Positions 2,653-47,321 of a stretch of DNA of 60,190 nt are shown here, piece by piece. The stretch covers positions 1 to 60,190 of the IMG/VR virus record IMGVR_UViG_3300046786_000688, one strand, 5' to 3'. The stretch's first letter is position 1, and each line of letters opens with the position of its first letter. The stretch comes from a virus (Duplodnaviria > Caudoviricetes). The notes under the pieces were generated by a model that was not told the origin of the DNA, made no database searches, and saw only the letters and a program-made list of their open reading frames with translations. The translations under genes were made by a program, and so were the position numbers.

Positions 2653-4251
2653 TTATACCGCTACTCCTAGATAGGACATGTTCACTGACGCATCATAATC
2701 CATCGACATGCCATCTGCTATTTCAGTGTAAGCTAGAAAGCCTCTAAACTGAAATGTAGTGCTGGTAGCAGCTGCGATAGTGAAAGTCTGCGTGTGATTA
2801 ATTGTTCTAACCAATTCTCCTTCTCCAGAGAATCCAACAAACAAATCTTCAAGATGAGTCACAACCGCACCAACTGGAGGAGCTCCTACGTTAGTAAGAA
2901 TACGCATCTCAAACACTGCTTGGGCTGTTCCAGTTAGATCCTGAGTATCTGCTACAAAATTAAACTCCGTAGTAACTGTCACATGCATCGTCTTACTTGA
3001 CGTGTTATTCAGCGTGTAAGACTGTATAGCAGTCTGATCCGAAGCATTAGCGGTAAACGTGCCCGATATAGCACCTACATCTCCAGTAGTTAAATCTATA
3101 ATCAATGTGTCTGACAGCTCGTTGATCTGATTCTGTAGATCTTCACAGCAGTCAATTGGACAGATAACGGTGCCAATAGGCATAGTCTCATCTGCTGCAG
3201 GAAGAGGCACTAAGAAGAAATTAATATGAGTGCCATCTGGCAGTCCATTTATCTCGCCTCTATCTGTCCTATTTCCAATTCTAATTATATCTCCACTTTG
3301 GAATATCGTTGAGTCATCAACAGCAACGTTATTATACTGCAGTGTTCCAGTAATAATATTTAAAGCTGCTGTCGTGGTGGCGCATTCAGTGACCCCTAAT
3401 GGCCGGTATTCAGCAGTCACTAAATCTGGATCAACTAGAGTAGCTACGTACCCTTCAGCTGCCCCGTTTAGCGGCGTTACAACTGCCGAATCTCCTCCGG
3501 CGCAAACAAGTACTGTTCCTTGAGAAACTGCGTCTCTGCCGCAAGGATTTACAGAAATAACTGACAAGCAATACTGATAATTTCCGTTTGAATCTTTTGC
3601 GATAACTGAAGTTCCAGGAGTGATTCCTTCTCCTTGATTACATATGGTAACGATATTGTTTGGCTTAATTTCTTGCAGAAAATAAAATCCGCTACCAATC
3701 TGTACAGTATCTCCAGCAGTCAATCCTGATGTAGCAGTTAGAGTTATATCAATGCAATCATCGACATCGGGCGCAGTAAAATCAATTTCAACGCAAACGT
3801 TACTATCGTCAGTACAATCACAAGGGGGGTCCGATACAATAAAGTCAGTGCAAGCTGGTACACTTGTACCTACTGCAGCATTGCCTTCATTGCAGTTATT
3901 TTGAACTGTGACTTCCCCGTTTGCTGCGTCAAAAGAAACTATCTCAAAGTAACCATACTCAGACGCCCAAAGGTACGCTCCAGGTTCTACTGATTTTAGT
4001 CCGGCAACACTAAGAACTGCAGTCTCTCCGCATGCTGGAATATTCCAAGTATTATCGACTTTTACTGTCGTATAGAACTGTTGAATCGTAATTTTCTTTG
4101 TATGATCTTCTGCGCAAACAGGGGCACACTGATAGTACGGAACTGGCGTAGAAGGAACAGGAGTGCAGCAGCCTTGACTAGGGCAGTTAGAAGAAGGACT
4201 AGATGATCTGCAACCACAAGGATAGCTAGAGCCACAAGTTGTACATGCCAT
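2653..4251 (-). CDS. Cys-rich repeat-containing virion/fibre-like protein (paralog A)
   Basis: 532 aa starting MACTTCGS; homologous to 4271-5590. Confidence 0.6.
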   Translation of the reverse strand: MACTTCGSSYPCGCRSSSPSSNCPSQGCCTPVPSTPVPYYQCAPVCAEDHTKKITIQQFYTTVKVDNTWNIPACGETAVLSVAGLKSVEPGAYLWASEYGYFEIVSFDAANGEVTVQNNCNEGNAAVGTSVPACTDFIVSDPPCDCTDDSNVCVEIDFTAPDVDDCIDITLTATSGLTAGDTVQIGSGFYFLQEIKPNNIVTICNQGEGITPGTSVIAKDSNGNYQYCLSVISVNPCGRDAVSQGTVLVCAGGDSAVVTPLNGAAEGYVATLVDPDLVTAEYRPLGVTECATTTAALNIITGTLQYNNVAVDDSTIFQSGDIIRIGNRTDRGEINGLPDGTHINFFLVPLPAADETMPIGTVICPIDCCEDLQNQINELSDTLIIDLTTGDVGAISGTFTANASDQTAIQSYTLNNTSSKTMHVTVTTEFNFVADTQDLTGTAQAVFEMRILTNVGAPPVGAVVTHLEDLFVGFSGEGELVRTINHTQTFTIAAATSTTFQFRGFLAYTEIADGMSMDYDASVNMSYLGVAV

Positions 4252-26227: not shown

Positions 26228-26474
26228 CTATTTTCTATTGACTCATTTATTCAAATGATTTAATAGCAAAACGGTAAAACCTTATTATAGAAATAGCTAC
26301 TTTTGTCATCCGATTGTCACTGAGTAACCCTCATGGCAGTCGGATTTTCACATATTGGGCTCGCCACTCCCCCATTCTTCAAAGTTGCCCAGCCAAAAAC
26401 TTCAAACCCAAAAATCCCCATTTTCCCTGTTTTGTTCTATTCTTTAAAACACACCTATCCCAAAATGCTCAGGG

Positions 26475-26806
26475 TGTGCCATCGATCACCCCTTTTGTGC
26501 CATCCAAAAAATAGATGGCACAGGTCAATGGCACAGCAAAATAGCTAACTCTTTCAATACTTTAAGGCACATTTTTTACCTTCCTGAGCTCGTGTGCCAT
26601 CGATTTCTATATACTTCCCCTATGTACATGTGTGTGTGTACCCACACATACCACCATACACACAGCCTCATTACCCCTATATAAATTTTATTCATTTAAT
26701 CTTTAAAATAGATGGCCCAGATGGCACACTTTTAATATAACTATATGGTTTTTTTGAAAAAATTAAGGGTGTGCCATGCTCGGCCATCTACTTTTTTAAT
26801 GGCACA
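26475..26806. repeat. Iteron cluster, probable replication origin
   Basis: TGTGCCAT/ATGGCACA in both orientations near 26475, 26496, 26514, 26527, 26593, 26720, 26770 and 26798, plus degenerate copies; AT-rich tract; directly downstream of the primase-helicase. Confidence 0.75.
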
Positions 26807-26825
26807 CCCACCTGTTCTACTCTAG

Positions 26826-29666
26826 CTAAAGCTGTTCTATTAAATTATTGCCTACCGAGCCTTTAAGCTTCTCTGGATCGTACTTCAGCAGCATGTAAAA
26901 TCCCCGCTCCTGTTGCCCTCCCCCACATCGTCGCCTATCTCCTTTGGCTCGCGTCACTGCTCGAAGCTCCGCTCCAAACACTCGCAAACTTACTGGGCAT
27001 GTACGAATCCCCTTAGAAACAAGCGTCATTCTGAAATGCTCGTACAGCTCCGCAGTGCTATGAAAATTCTCTTCTTGCAGTGCAATATCTGCCGCAAACA
27101 TCTGCCCGATAGTATTCTCAATCACAAAATTATCATCTTTATACTCTTGCAACGCTTCAACTGACGCCTGTGGAAGCACCAATTTTCCTCTCTTTTTCCA
27201 GCGTCTATAGCCCTCAATTGCCCAGTTCAAGATTCCGCTCAATTCCCGCTCAATCATGTCATCAATCGCGTTTGAGCTCTCTGTCGTAGGGTCAAACCTC
27301 TGTGCATAAGGAATCATGCAAAGCCTGCGCAGTAATCCATAATTTTCATATTGAGGCTTAGGCACCGCATTCAATCCAAGATGCACCTTTGCCCTGTTGT
27401 TAATCTCTCTGCTTTGCTCGTATTCAGCTCTGGCCCGAACTTTCTTTCCTGTGAGATTTTTAACCGTAGCTTCACTCCACCTGTCGGTAACTTCCAGGTC
27501 ATCAAGAATCATCAAGCGCTTGCCCTCAATCTTTGCCGCGACACGTTCAAACGGCTTTGCAAACTTCTTATCGCTAAAACTCATGTCATCCGGTGCTAGA
27601 GTGGCCGCGTACGTGCCCATTAAAGCCGCCAGGGCGCTCAATAGCTTCGATTTTCCATTCGCCCCTGTACCGCAGTGGCAAAATATCACCTGCTCATCAA
27701 TTAGCCCCTGTAGCGAGTACCCAAACACCTCCTGCATAAATTCAACCTGCTCTCGGTCATCCGAATACACCTGCATCAAAAACCTCTCCCAGCCCTCGCA
27801 TTTAGCCCCAGGCTCAAATTTCACCTTCGCCATACACTGTTGATAGTCTTCACTGCTAACTGGCCTCAGAAGCCCGTTTTGAAGGTTTAATAACCCATTC
27901 TGAACATGCAGCAGGTCATGTTTGGCATCGAAAAAATCCCTGTCCACTTCCTTAACATTGTTTGATTTCTTTACCAGTCCTACTATATCCTTGATTTTAT
28001 TAGCGGATTCAAACTTCGCCACTGCTTTCTTAAAAAGCATATCGCTAAAGCCCTCTTTGTCGCAGCAATAGCATCTCAAAAACGTCTCATCCTCTCTCAA
28101 ATCATACAGAACGCATTTAATCATCCTGTATATTTCCTGGCCTCCGCTACCTCCTTGTGTGCGCACATCCTGATTGCGCCACACCAAAAGCTCCTCATTA
28201 AACGCCCAAATATTACCTGCCGATCTCACCAAGCTCTTACCAAAGCGCTGTAGCACCCTGGCCGTGAGCCCTAAATCGGAAAATGAATTCCCTGCCAGCC
28301 AGGGGTCCGAAAAATCATATTGAAAAGCTTCCACTGCCTCGGCTGCTGTCCCATTAACGCCACTGCTCGCATGCCCATTAAGCTTGTCCAAAGCCGCCTG
28401 GGAAACTTTGATTTCTTCTGCAGGCTCTTCAACCGGCTGTTCCTCCCCATCTGGCTCATCGTCATCAACCTCTACTGTCTCTACTGCTGCCACTTCTTCA
28501 ACAATAACTTCTGGCTCTGCTGTCGCTGCCTCTTCCTGCTTCTCTTCCATATCGCCAAGGCGCTTATCAAATTTTATTTTTTTACTCTCCCATGCCTTTA
28601 CACCATGCGAAAAAGCGCTATTTATCACGCTCTCAAGCTCCTTTTCTCCCAGTGCTCCAGCTGGATTCTCTGCAGCAAAAGCTTGATTAATCTCTGCTGC
28701 TAAAGCGCAAGCTTGTACGTATGTGGGAGCTTTCTTTCCTGGCACGAACCGGCCAGTGAAGCGCTTTAGTGCATAGTACAAAAATGTATTCCTGCCCTCA
28801 GTGGCAAGCTCTTTAAAAGATTTTTTGTTCAAGCTCTTCTTGTTTGTCTTTTGCTTGGACTCCTTGATTGCCCCTGGGTTTGAATAAAGCTCCAAGCTTT
28901 CACTGAGCTTTTTTCTGCCCTCTTTTCTAGCTTTCTCTGCCTCTGCATAAGCTGTCTCAACGAACGAAAACGCTGGTAAATCAAGCTCTTTTTGACTTAA
29001 TTTTGCGCTCCAGGGACAGGTTTCGTTATTGATTCGATGCAGGGTAGGGAGCCATGCACTGCCTGGAGTACCTGTTTTTGTATATCTTGATATGCCTGGA
29101 ACCCTCAGAGTTTTTGTTACCTGATCTAGGTTCAAGTCGCCGGATAAATAGAAGCCAAAAGCGAGTTGTAAACGCTTCCATTGCCATAAAGAAAAGCCTG
29201 AATCGAGCCGCCAATAGCAGTGAAACTTTCCAGTGCCTGGTTCGCTCGATTGAACAACTGCATGGGGGTAAAGCGCTAAAGCTGCATCTAGCTTTTCCTG
29301 GGGTACGCCGTCTAAATCTACTGCTAAAACGCGGCAGGATTCGATGTTATTGCTTTTTCGTCCGAGTAAATTCGTGCGGTTTAGGGTTATATGCATTGAG
29401 ATATTTATCGGGTCTTTTCCCTGCTGAATATAACTACTCTGCAGATTGCCAAGCTTTTCTAGGCAATCATGGACTTTTCCATGAAACGTTCCTGCATCGG
29501 GCACTGCGCATTTATCTGCATCATCCAGGAATGCAACGGTAAAGATTTCCTCTGGGTCATCGGAGAAGATGCGGAAGAACTCGTAAATTGTATCTTTATG
29601 AAGCAGTGGCAGGTTTGACGAAGTGGCAGGGACAGCAGAGGTTTGCTCTGTGGTGGTTAGTTGCAT
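26826..29666 (-). CDS. Primase (RepB/AEP-like)-PriCT-D5/SF3 helicase fusion
   Basis: LAVDLD, FHCYW, LRVPG primase motifs; EGRN; Walker A GTGANGKS; LRRLCMIPY. Confidence 0.85.
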   Translation of the reverse strand: MQLTTTEQTSAVPATSSNLPLLHKDTIYEFFRIFSDDPEEIFTVAFLDDADKCAVPDAGTFHGKVHDCLEKLGNLQSSYIQQGKDPINISMHITLNRTNLLGRKSNNIESCRVLAVDLDGVPQEKLDAALALYPHAVVQSSEPGTGKFHCYWRLDSGFSLWQWKRLQLAFGFYLSGDLNLDQVTKTLRVPGISRYTKTGTPGSAWLPTLHRINNETCPWSAKLSQKELDLPAFSFVETAYAEAEKARKEGRKKLSESLELYSNPGAIKESKQKTNKKSLNKKSFKELATEGRNTFLYYALKRFTGRFVPGKKAPTYVQACALAAEINQAFAAENPAGALGEKELESVINSAFSHGVKAWESKKIKFDKRLGDMEEKQEEAATAEPEVIVEEVAAVETVEVDDDEPDGEEQPVEEPAEEIKVSQAALDKLNGHASSGVNGTAAEAVEAFQYDFSDPWLAGNSFSDLGLTARVLQRFGKSLVRSAGNIWAFNEELLVWRNQDVRTQGGSGGQEIYRMIKCVLYDLREDETFLRCYCCDKEGFSDMLFKKAVAKFESANKIKDIVGLVKKSNNVKEVDRDFFDAKHDLLHVQNGLLNLQNGLLRPVSSEDYQQCMAKVKFEPGAKCEGWERFLMQVYSDDREQVEFMQEVFGYSLQGLIDEQVIFCHCGTGANGKSKLLSALAALMGTYAATLAPDDMSFSDKKFAKPFERVAAKIEGKRLMILDDLEVTDRWSEATVKNLTGKKVRARAEYEQSREINNRAKVHLGLNAVPKPQYENYGLLRRLCMIPYAQRFDPTTESSNAIDDMIERELSGILNWAIEGYRRWKKRGKLVLPQASVEALQEYKDDNFVIENTIGQMFAADIALQEENFHSTAELYEHFRMTLVSKGIRTCPVSLRVFGAELRAVTRAKGDRRRCGGGQQERGFYMLLKYDPEKLKGSVGNNLIEQL

Positions 29667-31707: not shown

Positions 31708-31900
31708 GGTAAGCAGCTTAATTGAAGCTGGGAAGGATATCTTGATTGCTTGGATGGTTTTGATGTCGATATGGGGAATGTTCGCTGGCATCTGGGCATA
31801 TAATGCACTCAAGAGATCCGATATTCGAATTGATTATATGACAGGGACGTTTACTGTCAGTGAAGAAAGACCACTATTAGTAAAGGAGCGGGGGCGCTAA
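31664..31900 (+). CDS. Single-pass membrane protein
   Basis: ILIAWMVLMSIWGMFAGIWAY transmembrane segment; start may be 31688 after AAGGAG. Confidence 0.55.
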   Translation: MSVKETRRMLLKLNKVSSLIEAGKDILIAWMVLMSIWGMFAGIWAYNALKRSDIRIDYMTGTFTVSEERPLLVKERGR

Positions 31901-31913
31901 GCCCCCGTTATTT
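31889..31913 (+). terminator. Intrinsic terminator
   Basis: CGGGGGC-GCTAA-GCCCCCG followed by TTATTT. Confidence 0.6.
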
Positions 31914-31915
31914 AA

Positions 31916-32110
31916 ATGAAGTATATGTTTATTTGTTTACTGTCTGTATCGGCCTGTGCGCCCACAAAAAAGTGCTTGGAGTATAAAGCCGATATCTGCG
32001 CAGTTGAAACTCAAGTGCGCTTTGTACCAGGGCAAGGAGGGACTTTTATCCCTGATGTACAACCTGGGTATACATATAGCTGTAATAAGTGTGTGCGTTA
32101 TGCGAACTAA
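31916..32110 (+). CDS. Putative small Cys-rich lipoprotein
   Basis: MKYMFICLLSVSA-C lipobox-like; four more Cys downstream. Confidence 0.55.
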   Translation: MKYMFICLLSVSACAPTKKCLEYKADICAVETQVRFVPGQGGTFIPDVQPGYTYSCNKCVRYAN

Positions 32111-32750
32111 GAAAGCGTTATTATTAACTCTTGCCTCTGGGTTACTCGCTGCAGTAAGCGCTAGAGCTCAAACTCTTCGCATAGTAGAAGTTGATGGACC
32201 GCGCATGATGTCGCATAGAGAAGTTGAACAAACTTATCGCTGCGCCTCTAAGTATTTCAAAAAAGTTGGTATTAATTTCCGAGTTAAATACGCAAAGCTT
32301 AGCCCAAATCCTTGCTACGTATCTCATACGTTAAGAACTCGAAGTTCGGAGCTTAATTGCTTATCAATCTTTAGCCCCAATCGCAGAAAGACTTTGAACT
32401 ATTTTATTACTGAGCCGTTCTTTGAAACGCATTCGAATGGGACTCAAACTGCTTGGATTGCAGGACTCGCAAAGCTTTGCGGTAATACATCAACCGGCAA
32501 TGGTTCAGCTAGAAGTTTAATCAATGGGCAATCAAGTGCTTCACGGATTGAGCACTCCGGTGCAATCATGGCGCATGAGGTGATGCATAATATGTGCGCT
32601 ACTCACTATCCAAGCAGTGTTCAAGAGCCAAGCATTCCAAACATTATGAATCCTGCTGCTACTATCTTTGCTGCGGATTATGGATGCGAAATACCAGTGC
32701 TAAGAACAACGAAGCGACAAGTTAAAAGATGGTACGCAAAGAATAGGTGA
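32100..32750 (+). CDS. Secreted metzincin-like zinc metalloprotease
   Basis: Signal peptide MRTKKALLLTLASGLLAAVSARA; HEVMHNMCATH; downstream NIM Met-turn. Confidence 0.7.
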   Translation: MRTKKALLLTLASGLLAAVSARAQTLRIVEVDGPRMMSHREVEQTYRCASKYFKKVGINFRVKYAKLSPNPCYVSHTLRTRSSELNCLSIFSPNRRKTLNYFITEPFFETHSNGTQTAWIAGLAKLCGNTSTGNGSARSLINGQSSASRIEHSGAIMAHEVMHNMCATHYPSSVQEPSIPNIMNPAATIFAADYGCEIPVLRTTKRQVKRWYAKNR

Positions 32751-44171: not shown

Positions 44172-45206
44172 ATGTCCGATAAAATCACGCTAATCACCTG
44201 CACTGGTGGCCGTCCTGAAGCTTTCGAGCTATGCCAAAAATACATGGAAGCTCAAACCGTTCAACCGGACCAGTGGATTGTGGTACATGATATGATAACA
44301 AAAGCGCAGGCAAAGGAGCTTCAAGCGTCTTACCCACAGTTAGAGCTTTATGCTGGCCCTCGTACATGGAAACCAGGGCTCAATACTCAGCGCTTTAATA
44401 TGGAAGAAGCTCTAAAACATGTAGAAGGTGATATCGTTTTATTTATTGAAGACGATGATTTCTATGCACCAGAATATATAGAGACAATGGTTAAGCTCCT
44501 TCAGGGCGAAACATTGATCGCAGGACTATCCAATAACAAGTACTACAACCTAGCTATTCCTGGCTGGAAGGAGATGGGTAACTACAGGCACTCATCGCTT
44601 TGCACTACTGCAGTTAGAAAAGCTTTACTTCCGATGGTTCAAGCGGCTGTAGATTCAGGGGAGCTGTATTTTGATATGCACCTTTGGGCATCGGCATTAG
44701 CTTCAAAGACTCCTATGATGCTTAAAGCCAATAGCACAGTTAGTGTTGGAATTAAGGGACTCCCAGGAAAAGCTGGGATTGGAGCAGGGCATAGATTTTC
44801 AGGTTTCGCAATCGATCCTAACCTGTTAAAGTTAAAAGAGTGGCTGCAAGAAGGCGCACAAACGTATATGCCTTATATCAAGAAGTTCTCAGATTTACCT
44901 GCCGCTGTTCAAGCTGCTCCTGCAAAACCTGCAGCAAAGACAGTTGTTAAACCGATACAAGCTCCAACTCCTGCAGCTAAAACTGCTCCAATAAAAGCTA
45001 AAACTCCTGTGAACGTACCAGTCAATACTGTGCGTCCACAGAATATTAAGCCTCCAATGGGTGTGCCTGCAGCGGCACAGAGCCAAAGAGCTGCAATGGC
45101 AATGCTTCCACAGTCTCCTGGAATGAATCCGCAAAGTGCTGAGCTTACTCAATCAGTAAATACGTACCCTACTGGAGAAAGGTCTCAGGGAGAGATTTTT
45201 AAATAA
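44172..45206 (+). CDS. Glycosyltransferase (GT2-like) with low-complexity C-terminal tail
   Basis: TLITCT..RPE, QWIVVHD, FIEDDDFY; P/A/K/Q-rich tail. Confidence 0.8.
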   Translation: MSDKITLITCTGGRPEAFELCQKYMEAQTVQPDQWIVVHDMITKAQAKELQASYPQLELYAGPRTWKPGLNTQRFNMEEALKHVEGDIVLFIEDDDFYAPEYIETMVKLLQGETLIAGLSNNKYYNLAIPGWKEMGNYRHSSLCTTAVRKALLPMVQAAVDSGELYFDMHLWASALASKTPMMLKANSTVSVGIKGLPGKAGIGAGHRFSGFAIDPNLLKLKEWLQEGAQTYMPYIKKFSDLPAAVQAAPAKPAAKTVVKPIQAPTPAAKTAPIKAKTPVNVPVNTVRPQNIKPPMGVPAAAQSQRAAMAMLPQSPGMNPQSAELTQSVNTYPTGERSQGEIFK

Positions 45207-45213
45207 GTAACTT

Positions 45214-45366
45214 ATGCCATTAACGCCTAAAGGAAATAAAATACTTAAGCAGATGCTTAAGCATTACGGTTCCAAGAAGAAAGCCGAGCAGGTTTTCTAT
45301 GCCTCCATCAATGAGGGAAAGATTAAAGGCGCAGAAAAAACCAAAAAGCGGAAGAAAAAGAAGTGA
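45214..45366 (+). CDS. 50-aa basic microprotein
   Basis: Hand translation MPLTPKGNKILKQMLKHYGSKKKAEQVFYASINEGKIKGAEKTKKRKKKK; GTGA overlap with the next gene. Confidence 0.7.
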   Translation: MPLTPKGNKILKQMLKHYGSKKKAEQVFYASINEGKIKGAEKTKKRKKKK

Positions 45367-45779
45367 AAGCCGACCCCTGTATAAAGTATATAAACTTTCA
45401 GGGGGAATCGATTCACCTCGTTAAGGACATGCACGATGGTCTTTGGCGTTCTTCAGATGGGTCCATCTGGGCATTCGCTGATGATACATTCTCTTTGGAT
45501 AGAAAAGTGCGCCCTGGCGTAGGCTTTTTCTCGTGGCGCAAATGGTGGCCCTGGTATAACGAGCTCACCGATGCAGTAAGAACCCATGATTACGTTTACT
45601 CTTCTCCTGCATATCAAGCATTCAATACCCGACAAGAAGCAGATGCACTTTTAGAAAGCCACGTTAATGCGATGGCAGATACTATTAACAGCACAGGATT
45701 AAGGATACTTGCTAAGCCGTTTAGAAAATTAGCTGAATGGTTTGGTGGCAAGTACTGGGAAAATGAAACCACCAGATAA
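45363..45779 (+). CDS. DUF1353-like protein
   Basis: AVRTHDYVY...TRQEADALL motif. Confidence 0.5.
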   Translation: MKADPCIKYINFQGESIHLVKDMHDGLWRSSDGSIWAFADDTFSLDRKVRPGVGFFSWRKWWPWYNELTDAVRTHDYVYSSPAYQAFNTRQEADALLESHVNAMADTINSTGLRILAKPFRKLAEWFGGKYWENETTR

Positions 45780-45918
45780 CGAGGAAGGCAAAGGTAGTAT
45801 GGGAGCCAAAAGGTGAAGCCACCTAGAGGATACAACCGGCCACACAAGGAGTGTGTCGTCGGCCCTGAAAATTCCATAATGGTTTTGTGCCCCCAGAACC
45901 CTTCCTTCCTCGTTTTTT
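45778..45918 (+). ncRNA. Candidate structured RNA, unclassified
   Basis: Five or more nested helices filling the intergenic gap; G-U pairs favour the plus strand; U-run after the closing stem. Confidence 0.6.
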
Positions 45919-45934
45919 ATGACAGGAGAATTGT

Positions 45935-46051
45935 ATGGAAAAAATGATAAATAAAATGATAGGAAAAGCTCAAGCTAAAATGGCAGGCAAAAAGAAGATG
46001 GTAAAGAAAGCTGCCAAGAAAGCTGGAAAGAAAAAGAAAGGTTGCGCGTAA
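45935..46051 (+). CDS. 38-aa Lys-rich microprotein
   Basis: AGGAG SD; MEKMINKMIGKAQAKMAGKKKMVKKAAKKAGKKKKGCA. Confidence 0.65.
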   Translation: MEKMINKMIGKAQAKMAGKKKMVKKAAKKAGKKKKGCA

Positions 46052-46071: not shown

Positions 46072-46407
46072 ATGTTAAGTTTTTTGTTTCGATCTCAAGG
46101 AGCTAAGAGGCAGGTAGCTGCTATTCTATCTGTGCTTTTAGGCTTTGCAGAAGTTATTCCAGGGGCTGCTGGGGCGATTAGTGCCATTCAATGGGCTGCT
46201 GGAGTATTCGGAGTCACTGGTTTAGTCCATGCAGCAGGAGCTCAAACGCTTCTAAAGCATAGGCTGGCTGGTATAACTGCTGTACTTACGACGTTAATAG
46301 CTGTTGCACATTTTGTGCCATCATTAGCTCCGCTAATTGGGCCAATGCAACATCTAGCTTCGATTTTAGGGGCTGCTGCTGTTGGAAGTAACCTCTCAAA
46401 ATCTTGA
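46072..46407 (+). CDS. Multi-pass membrane protein, holin-like
   Basis: AAGGAG SD; several hydrophobic segments in two similar halves. Confidence 0.55.
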   Translation: MLSFLFRSQGAKRQVAAILSVLLGFAEVIPGAAGAISAIQWAAGVFGVTGLVHAAGAQTLLKHRLAGITAVLTTLIAVAHFVPSLAPLIGPMQHLASILGAAAVGSNLSKS

Positions 46408-46462: not shown

Positions 46463-46843
46463 ATGAGCATGAATAAACCACATATGCTTGCACTACAAAT
46501 AACATCCCAAACACAAACCGATTACTCCCCTTCTTATATCCCTGAGAAGGGGCTTTTAGCTGGTGTCCTAGAACGAGCTGTACGCGATTTAGGACTGTCT
46601 GGCTGCTATACAGACAGACGAACTGCCATAGAATGGTTTAAAAAAGCTGATAAGCTAAGAGAAGACCAGATGCAGGAGGGCTTTACCTATATGTACGTAG
46701 CCCATAATCTGGGGCTTTCTAAGTGGCAGATGGACCATATCAGGCGCTTAGTAGACCAGGCTATACTTTATCAAGACAATCTAAAGAAGAAGAAAGGAAC
46801 TCCCGATGTACGACTATTTCCTGGGAATCGACCCCGGCCTTGA
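46463..46843 (+). CDS. Uncharacterised helical protein (PEKxLLxxVLERAVxD motif)
   Basis: PEKGLLAGVLERAVRDL...AIEWF...FTYMYVAHNLGL; start uncertain. Confidence 0.55.
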   Translation: MSMNKPHMLALQITSQTQTDYSPSYIPEKGLLAGVLERAVRDLGLSGCYTDRRTAIEWFKKADKLREDQMQEGFTYMYVAHNLGLSKWQMDHIRRLVDQAILYQDNLKKKKGTPDVRLFPGNRPRP

Positions 46844-47321
46844 TGGTGCCTGCGTACTCCTGTGTAACTCTGGGGAAGTGAAAGAGCATTATAAGCTTCC
46901 ATCTTTAGTAGTGCAGGACAATAAAAGAAAGCTCCATGCATACGGCCTATACCTGTGGTTAAGGCAGATATTTCAGTGCTACCCAAAAACTCTTGTTTGC
47001 ATTGAAAAGATTAACGGTTCTCCAGGGCAAGGAGCGACTTCAATATTTGCGATGGGCCACGGCGCAGGACAGATAGAGGCTTGTGTAGCTATCGCTGGAT
47101 TTCCATACGAGTTTGTTGGGCCGCAGAAATGGAAGAATAGATTCCTGTCGGGAAGCAAAAAAGAAAAAGATGCGTCCGTACAAAAAGCTTTAGAGCTTTT
47201 TCCTGGAAGTCGTGATTGGATAATTGGTCCTAAAGGTGGAAGAGACCATAACCTAGCCGATGCGCTGTTCATTGCGGAGTACGCTAGGAGCTTTAATCTC
47301 CGAGAATCACCTGCCGTTTAA
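46806..47321 (+). CDS. RuvC-like Holliday junction resolvase
   Basis: LGIDPG, VCIEK, PQKWK, ADALFIA. Confidence 0.8.
   Translation: MYDYFLGIDPGLDGACVLLCNSGEVKEHYKLPSLVVQDNKRKLHAYGLYLWLRQIFQCYPKTLVCIEKINGSPGQGATSIFAMGHGAGQIEACVAIAGFPYEFVGPQKWKNRFLSGSKKEKDASVQKALELFPGSRDWIIGPKGGRDHNLADALFIAEYARSFNLRESPAV

Follow-up and report, generated by a model that had tools for sequence, protein, structure and literature searches.

Is the gap between two neighboring genes of an environmental phage, a gap which extends from a TAA stop codon at 45,777-79 to an ATG at 45,935, simply a spacer, or does it instead specify a structured RNA? If the latter, then on which strand would that RNA lie, does it have relatives, and what might it do? 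Coordinates here refer to the ‘window’, i.e., the whole stretch of DNA that was analyzed, which is an IMG/VR virus record that, at 60,190 bases, is complete or nearly so (98%). An original prediction, made from the DNA letters, had proposed a novel, multi-branched RNA as filling this gap. I use here the term ‘element’ to describe that domain as it is now modeled, that is, over a length of ~137 nt (45,778-45,914).

The Phage and the Locus

DNA near-identical to that of the window is present in freshwater metagenome runs. Among 50,697 GenBank phage records, there is no DNA match to the window, nor do GenBank phages supply a protein match for either of the genes flanking the gap. The family A DNA polymerase displays at most 28% identity, over 95% of the query, with the best-ranked GenBank hit being to a Pseudanabaena phage. 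As judged from these comparisons, this is a phage lineage that is remote from all cultured phages and which has no cultured member.

The plus strand carries all of the genes found from ~29.7 to 47.3 kb, a block which includes those for a helicase, an exonuclease, an SSB-like protein, the DNA polymerase, and a RuvC-like resolvase, along with three glycosyl-transferase/hydrolase genes. The immediate neighbors of the gap are as follows:

45,363-45,779, plus strand: upstream gene of 138 aa, as taken from the list of open reading frames, with its TAA stop overlapping the first bases of helix P1
45,935-46,051, plus strand: downstream, Lys-rich ORF of 38 aa, with AGGAG at 45,924-28
46,072-46,407, plus strand: membrane-like ORF of 111 aa, 3' of the Lys-rich ORF
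after the membrane-like ORF, plus strand: an ORF of 153 aa and then the RuvC-like resolvase gene (46,806-47,321)

The 138-aa upstream protein has six relatives at E ≤ 0.001, with the window's own protein counted among them, and Pfam as well as PHROG searches with it were without hits. In the ESM Atlas, the clusters closest to it are those of DUF1353 (score 0.92), and its AlphaFold model is weak (pLDDT 65.7), such that its description as DUF1353-like is a lead only. The motifs DGLWR, GVG, HD.xYSS, and WEN are invariant in the six sequences. Structural neighbors include phospholipase A2-like families, which again, at that pLDDT of 65.7, is a lead only. The DUF1353-like gene plus the predicted RNA are flanked by two very Lys-rich micro-ORFs, i.e., 45,214-45,366 (50 aa) and 45,935-46,051 (38 aa), neither of which matched a family.

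Two further observations concern transcription in this phage. The RuvC-like gene (plus strand, ending at 47,321) converges on the gene of a 1857-aa virion protein (minus strand, ending at 47,293), the latter protein possessing a lytic transglycosylase-like N-terminus. These genes overlap by 29 bases (47,293-47,321), and a terminator consequently would have no space in which to separate the two blocks of transcription. In addition, sigma-70-like promoter matches per 20-kb third of the window number 27, 26, and 22 versus 34.9, 38.9, and 30.8 in shuffles. As these are fewer than in the shuffles, there is a hint that promoters of the host or of the phage depart from the consensus for E. coli.

A Fold That Exceeds Chance

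The gap folds better than do shuffled versions of itself. The plus strand has a minimum free energy of -51.1 kcal/mol (z -3.92), with 0/200 shuffles as good. The minus strand, at -59.3 kcal/mol (z -4.91), also was equaled by none of 200 shuffles. Among 2402 windows of 150 nt, as regressed on GC content, the element ranks 29th on the plus strand and 2nd on the minus strand. The fold of the gap is therefore beyond chance, yet energy alone neither makes it unique nor assigns it to a strand.

Other regions also stand out in terms of folding. The strongest plus-strand fold of the window is found at 31,860-32,030 (z -4.15 versus shuffles), where a 9-bp GC hairpin followed by UAUUU (31,887-31,909) is terminator-like and lies in the gap before the ORF at 31,956-32,750. 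The most stable 150-nt minus-strand window, 44,951-45,100 (-67.7 kcal/mol, GC-regressed z -4.8), falls within the Ala/Pro-rich C-terminal part of a glycosyltransferase gene (44,172-45,206), and its fold probably is an effect of composition. Positions 26,290-26,826, which on either strand have a high rank in the fold scan, make up an AT-rich, divergent gap beside a primase-helicase gene (26,826-29,666, minus strand). Within that gap there are two direct and two inverted copies of a motif of 14-16 nt, AAATAGATGGCACA..., along with a second repeat, GGGTGTGCCAT, at 26,472 and 26,767. The gap is a candidate for an operator or an origin.

Conservation in a Distant Relative

The element occurs a second time, with gene order unchanged, in one other IMG/VR record, here called L002 (and reached also as L003, L010, L011, and L023). 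In that record a 134-aa homologue of the upstream protein is followed by a 160-nt gap and then by a 42-aa Lys-rich ORF, a 111-aa membrane-like ORF, a 130-aa ORF, and a RuvC-like gene. The five flanking proteins are 53-72% identical between the window and L002, and the third codon positions of their genes are 39-50% identical, which is near saturation. The two Lys-rich micro-ORFs are kept as well (L002 positions 2422-2580 and 3142-3270, at 72% and 53% identity).

The gap itself is identical at 104 of 154 aligned columns (68%), with 8 gap columns that derive from six separate indels, of which five are 1 nt and one is 3 nt. An overlapping ORF of 44 aa (45,813-45,947) was considered and rejected, as the ORF beginning with the same GTG in L002 yields an unrelated peptide and as there are six frame-breaking indels. 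Given these indels and unrelated translations, and given an identity of 68% versus the 39-50% of third codon positions, the gap is under purifying selection and is not protein-coding. Read-through of the upstream stop codon also was rejected, with an in-frame UAG found five codons on.

Is it then the structure which is conserved? A covariance model that was built from the window alone, using the model structure, matches L002 at 89.3 bits (E 1e-19), and plus strands of the window and of L002, when folded separately, arrive at the same helices with high pair probabilities. In an alignment that was fitted to the structure, each of the 45 pairs is maintained in the window as well as in L002, such that 90/90 cells are standard pairs, and 11 of the 45 are changed on both sides (three in P1, two in P2, five in P4, and one in P5). 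This result was reached by 0/500 column shuffles, while sliding partners by 1-3 columns, as a control, gave 44-51% paired cells with 0-5 double changes. These pair counts are inflated, as the structure to which the alignment was fitted had been curated with both sequences in view. The independent sequences also number only two. With an unfitted MAFFT alignment, RNAalifold nonetheless finds, on the plus strand, 7 double changes in 31 pairs. Compensatory changes, which had been suggested as a check on the RNA, consequently are seen by either route (11/45 fitted, 7/31 unfitted).

Closer relatives supply variation of another kind. Contigs from two runs, X5 and X6, which consist of near-identical DNA, differ by six substitutions within 45,778-45,918, namely at 45,794, 45,817, 45,818, 45,848, 45,850, and 45,851. 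All six are at positions which are unpaired in the model, with unpaired positions making up 36% of the element. As a distant relative keeps the fold through matching base changes, the gap probably contains a real RNA element, that is, a conserved, RNA-level structure which is known from two lineages.

Searches for additional lineages were made in several ways. The window-only covariance model found nothing credible in 17 other loci, including L009 as well as L004 through L008, where a DUF1353-like gene is present, without the element downstream. DNA patterns, exact and gapped, recovered from IMG/VR only the contig of L002 plus three chance matches within coding regions. Among GTDB genomes there were eight pattern stretches, none of which the covariance model matched at the place of the pattern. 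Scans anchored on proteins returned the L002 contig as the sole locus with the element. In a search of whole records, the element was found in 1 of 4, and it is single copy per record, which rules out a repeat element.

Architecture of the Element

As modeled, the element is closed by helix P1 together with P1b. Past an internal loop, in which bases are conserved, comes the long-range helix P2, and this is topped by a junction from which P3, P4, and P5 extend. The parts of the element are as follows:

45,778-45,788, plus strand: 5' strand of P1, AACGAGGAAGG, purine-rich, pairing with 45,904-45,914 (probability 0.97)
45,791-45,793, plus strand: 5' strand of P1b, AAG, pairing with CUU at 45,901-45,903; invariant in both sequences and so uninformative
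45,794-45,799, plus strand: junction J1/2, GUAGUA, unpaired and conserved (AUAGUA in L002)
45,800-45,811, plus strand: 5' strand of P2, UGGGAGCCAAAA, long-range and bulged, pairing with 45,883-45,895
45,812-45,823, plus strand: P3 hairpin, GGUG-AAGC-CACC, stacking on P2, with the stem invariant
45,827-45,829, plus strand: 5' strand of the P4 base, AGG, pairing with CCU at 45,864-45,866
45,836-45,862, plus strand: P4 hairpin, CCGGC.ACACA-AGGAG-UGUGU.GUCGG
45,874-45,882, plus strand: P5 mini-hairpin, CCA-UAA-UGG (CCU-UAA-AGG in L002)
45,883-45,895, plus strand: 3' strand of P2, UUUUGUGCCCCCA, overlapping an alternative hairpin of the original prediction (45,881-45,900)
45,896-45,900, plus strand: junction J2/1, GAACC, unpaired and conserved, identical in L002
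45,901-45,914, plus strand: 3' strands of P1b (CUU) and of P1 (CCUUCCUCGUU), pyrimidine-rich
45,913-45,918, plus strand: U-run, UUUUUU, with its first two bases within P1 (tail AUUUUA in L002)

Three of the 11 pairs of P1 are changed on both sides in L002, where this helix has 12 bp with a bulge and then 3-4 U, versus 11 bp and then UUUU(UU) in the window. P2 is predicted independently in the two sequences, with pair probabilities of 0.72-0.99, and two of its pairs are doubly changed, with GGG/CCC of the window replaced by GAC/GUC. The loop of P3 differs both in L002, where it is 7 nt, and in run X6 (45,817 and 45,818). The base of P4 is weak in the window (probability 0.14) and strong in L002 (0.88, with 5 bp there). 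The sequence of P4 itself is almost wholly replaced in L002 and its hairpin retained, with five of ten pairs doubly changed and one singly changed, and loop positions 45,848, 45,850, and 45,851 are variable in runs X5 and X6. In P5, one of three pairs is doubly changed, from A-U to U-A, with probabilities of 0.52 and 0.67.

This architecture shares much with that first proposed. The sequence and coordinates were as originally described, all 45 of 45 pairs of five helices are standard, and the model has an energy of -45.8 kcal/mol. The closing stem along with the hairpins at 45,812-23 and 45,836-62 are upheld by L002. The inner stem, UAUGGGA/UUCCAUA, is not, with four of its seven pairs broken there. 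The originally proposed 3' hairpin, GGUUUUG/CAGAACC (45,881-45,900), is identical in both sequences and excludes the covarying P2; as it does not vary between the window and L002, it is uninformative. The conformer that contains this hairpin is less stable than the P2 conformer, by 3.1 kcal/mol in the window and by 3.6 kcal/mol in L002, a difference that is compatible with a switch without being evidence for one. That the hairpin may serve as an alternative conformer is, that is, a conjecture. Pairing of the 3' hairpin's loop with 45,800-03, as a pseudoknot, was rejected by reasoning, as its strands would have no linker.

Which Strand?

Energy gives no answer as to strand, with the window's minus-strand fold being the more stable, by 8 kcal/mol. 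The original prediction had appealed instead to G-U pairs, these as pointing to a plus-strand RNA. G-U pairs in P4 of both the window and L002 indeed would be C-A on the minus strand. The minus strand of the window, however, gains two G-U pairs of its own. As each strand thus has wobbles that would be A-C on the other, such pairs discriminate in favor of neither strand.

Other considerations are in support of the plus strand. A U-run following P1 is found only there (UUUUUU in the window, AUUUUA in L002), and all of the neighboring genes share that orientation. For L002, furthermore, the minus-strand optimum has another fold, and the probability of the mirrored helices is 0.33-0.44. A plus-strand RNA domain, as based on these sequence features, is the best reading.

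What then of a DNA-level or minus-strand element, e.g., a cruciform or single-stranded DNA signal that would function in replication, recombination, or packaging, or instead an antisense RNA? Compensatory changes cannot separate DNA from RNA, RNAalifold on the minus strand gives 9 double changes in 42 pairs, and it is the minus strand of the window which folds better (z -4.9, rank 2 of 2402). Standing against this, and leaving it quite unlikely, are the differing L002 minus-strand optimum, the noted C-A mismatches in P4, and the absence of minus-strand genes (~29.7-47.3 kb) as well as of a minus-strand U-run. Regarding a replication origin at the element in particular, this was rejected, with the 26.3-26.8 kb region, next to the primase gene, being the better origin or operator candidate.

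Comparison with Known RNAs

At gathering scores, Rfam 15 has no matches anywhere in the 60,190 bases, and ARAGORN finds no tRNA or tmRNA in the window, as is consistent with the initial failure to recognize a known RNA. A permissive Rfam search (E ≤ 10) gave, as best local scores, 19.8, 19.1, and 13 bits versus cut-offs of 50, 49, and 70, and none of these weak hits is common to L002 and the window. The element, as judged by such comparison, matches no described RNA family in Rfam 15, and is an unclassified motif.

One of the weak hits involves Mu-gpT-DE (RF03012), at 19.1 bits versus the gathering score of 49. Members of that family are located downstream of Mu gpT-like genes and have a conserved CCCUG/CAGG stem, which encloses the stretch ahead of the next start. 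That match covers 45,863-45,937 (CCCUGA ... GACAGGAGA ... AUG) and takes in the downstream ribosome-binding site (RBS). It was rejected, as L002 gives no such hit, as the CCCUG/CAGG pairing is lost in L002 (the 3' CAGG partner is missing), and as the upstream gene is DUF1353-like rather than encoding a Mu gpT-like head protein. Also rejected was a hammerhead-like CUGA...GAAA, which is not conserved and is without an Rfam hit.

The original prediction had drawn attention as well to GGA motifs, in likeness to CsrA/RsmA sites, and to the possibility of a protein sponge. Known CsrA sponges carry many GGAs, most of them in hairpin loops or in single-stranded spacers. Four GGA motifs are present, one of these in a loop, since the P4 loop of the window is AGGAG, and this loop in environmental variants likewise has a GGA, though displaced by one base. 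The other GGAs of the window are within helices. Enrichment is not seen, however, with four versus 2.46 +/- 1.37 expected from mononucleotide shuffles (21% of which have at least four) and three versus 2.25 expected in L002. Nor is the loop GGA found in L002, where the P4 loop is AUGAC, and Rfam supplies no match to a Csr or Rsm family. A CsrA/RsmA-type sponge is, on this basis, highly improbable.

Riboswitch aptamers supply another comparison. Those for SAM-I, yybP-ykoY, and cobalamin are P1-closed, multi-helix junctions. The element is similar in terms of its own P1-closed junction, its conserved junction bases, its covarying stems, and its location as a leader ahead of a U-run plus RBS. Covarying helices in combination with conserved junction bases, i.e., the features looked for in a riboswitch, are found here for two sequences, as 11 double changes in 45 pairs along with the conserved junction blocks GUAGUA, GAACC, UAA, and GCCCUG. 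The likeness is a putative one. The element differs in lacking an Rfam match even at E ≤ 10, and its downstream genes are for a Lys-rich peptide and a membrane protein rather than for metabolism or transport.

The element could nevertheless belong to a new class of regulatory RNA in phages, as the aptamer-like core of such an RNA, or instead could be a new trans-acting, ribonucleoprotein RNA, though this is rather doubtful. As an aptamer, its P1-closed junction would serve to bind a factor from phage or host, whether a small molecule or one of the adjacent Lys-rich peptides. That factor would favor P1 over the alternative 3' hairpin, in that way gating read-through or translation into the cluster of membrane protein and resolvase genes.

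Possible Function Between Two Cistrons

A tentative reading, plausible if short of an even chance, is that the element is a cis-acting, intercistronic domain of the plus-strand RNA, serving as a boundary or as a regulatory element. Under this reading the domain would act in cis on a polycistronic transcript, with the closing helix P1 clamping the upstream stop codon to the U-run just ahead of the next RBS. In its folded state, P1 would give rise to an intrinsic-terminator-like or an exonuclease-blocking 3' end, thereby setting the amount of transcript or translation that reaches the Lys-rich peptide, the membrane protein, and the RuvC-like resolvase. P1, by contrast, would be melted by a ribosome that terminates at the upstream stop. 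Conservation of bases in the junctions and loops is suggestive also of a bound partner, protein or small molecule, that may tune P1.

Placement of the element is what gives rise to these suggestions. The upstream stop codon overlaps P1, the U-run is 16-20 nt ahead of the next start codon, and in both genomes the RBS lies just past the tail, within 10 nt (AGGAG in the window, AAAGGUG in L002). As with intrinsic terminators and attenuators, a GC-rich closing helix, here of 11 bp, is present on the coding strand where a gene ends, with a U-run directly after it. Differing from these, the helix closes a branched and conserved domain rather than a small loop, and such a branched, 115-nt insert within a terminator stem is unusual. 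The U-run of L002 is also weak (3-4 U). A simple terminator scan does not flag the element, as its stem encloses 115 nt and so fails the loop criterion, and hairpin-plus-U terminators are, genome-wide, no commoner than in shuffles. Because the scan does not flag the site and such sites are no commoner than in shuffles, termination by the element is a conjecture.

Processing provides a further point of comparison. RNase III processing signals of T7-type phages, as well as rRNA processing stems, are comparable rods. P1, P1b, and P2 together make up an irregular rod of ~25 bp, with an internal loop, which is found between two cistrons. The element differs in having a branched and conserved apex, and the likeness is one of predicted fold.

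The same placement might be explained in terms of translation. That is, the element could be a translational operator or a coupling device for the downstream Lys-rich ORF. As an operator, the basic peptide or some other phage protein would repress via this leader (cf. ribosomal-protein leaders and T4 translational operators). As a coupling device, P1 would bring the upstream stop beside the downstream start, such that terminating ribosomes would re-initiate. The element is directly 5' of the RBS in both genomes, P1 juxtaposes stop and start regions, and the downstream product is highly basic, all as might be expected. The RBS, however, is outside of every conserved helix, with a predicted accessibility of ~0.5-0.6 in both genomes, and the RBS-masking CCCUG/CAGG pairing of the window is missing from L002, which makes control of this sort unlikely.

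Alternatively, the RNA might function away from its transcript, as a stable, trans-acting phage ncRNA, i.e., as a scaffold, a decoy, or a ribonucleoprotein component, for instance in association with the neighboring Lys-rich peptides. Its 3' end would be formed by termination at the U-run and its 5' end by initiation or processing at the foot of P1. Consistent with this are ends which lie in a long closing helix that is followed by U's, as is the case for many stand-alone small RNAs, junction and loop bases which are conserved beyond the needs of a mere hairpin, and the two Lys-rich micro-ORFs that flank the locus. Less consistent is that a promoter-like site was not found upstream on the plus strand and that the 5' end would coincide with the stop of a gene that is translated. 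The element also is single copy, no RNA run is among those listed for the locus, and neither phi29 pRNA, 6S, Y RNA, nor any other family in Rfam resembles it. A trans-acting role for this domain is thus on the doubtful side.

Significance

Structured RNAs of phages are mostly uncharacterized. Fremin, Bhatt, and Kyrpides (2023) described 10,006 candidate structured RNAs of viruses and phages from IMG/VR, a catalogue that includes terminators as well as putative cis-regulators upstream of genes (PMC10690425). The element is like those candidates in being a structure from IMG/VR contigs which is intergenic, is conserved, and covaries (PMC10690425). It differs in that it is found in two IMG/VR records, whereas the pipeline of Fremin et al. 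kept models matching at least three unique regions (PMC10690425).

At present, then, the element is one candidate among thousands, and is known from two lineages. What it offers is a clear architecture, compensatory changes, and conservation at the level of coding positions. Should it be found to gate the genes downstream, or to bind a factor, then it would represent a new class of regulatory RNA and, at ~140 nt, would be a compact object for testing.
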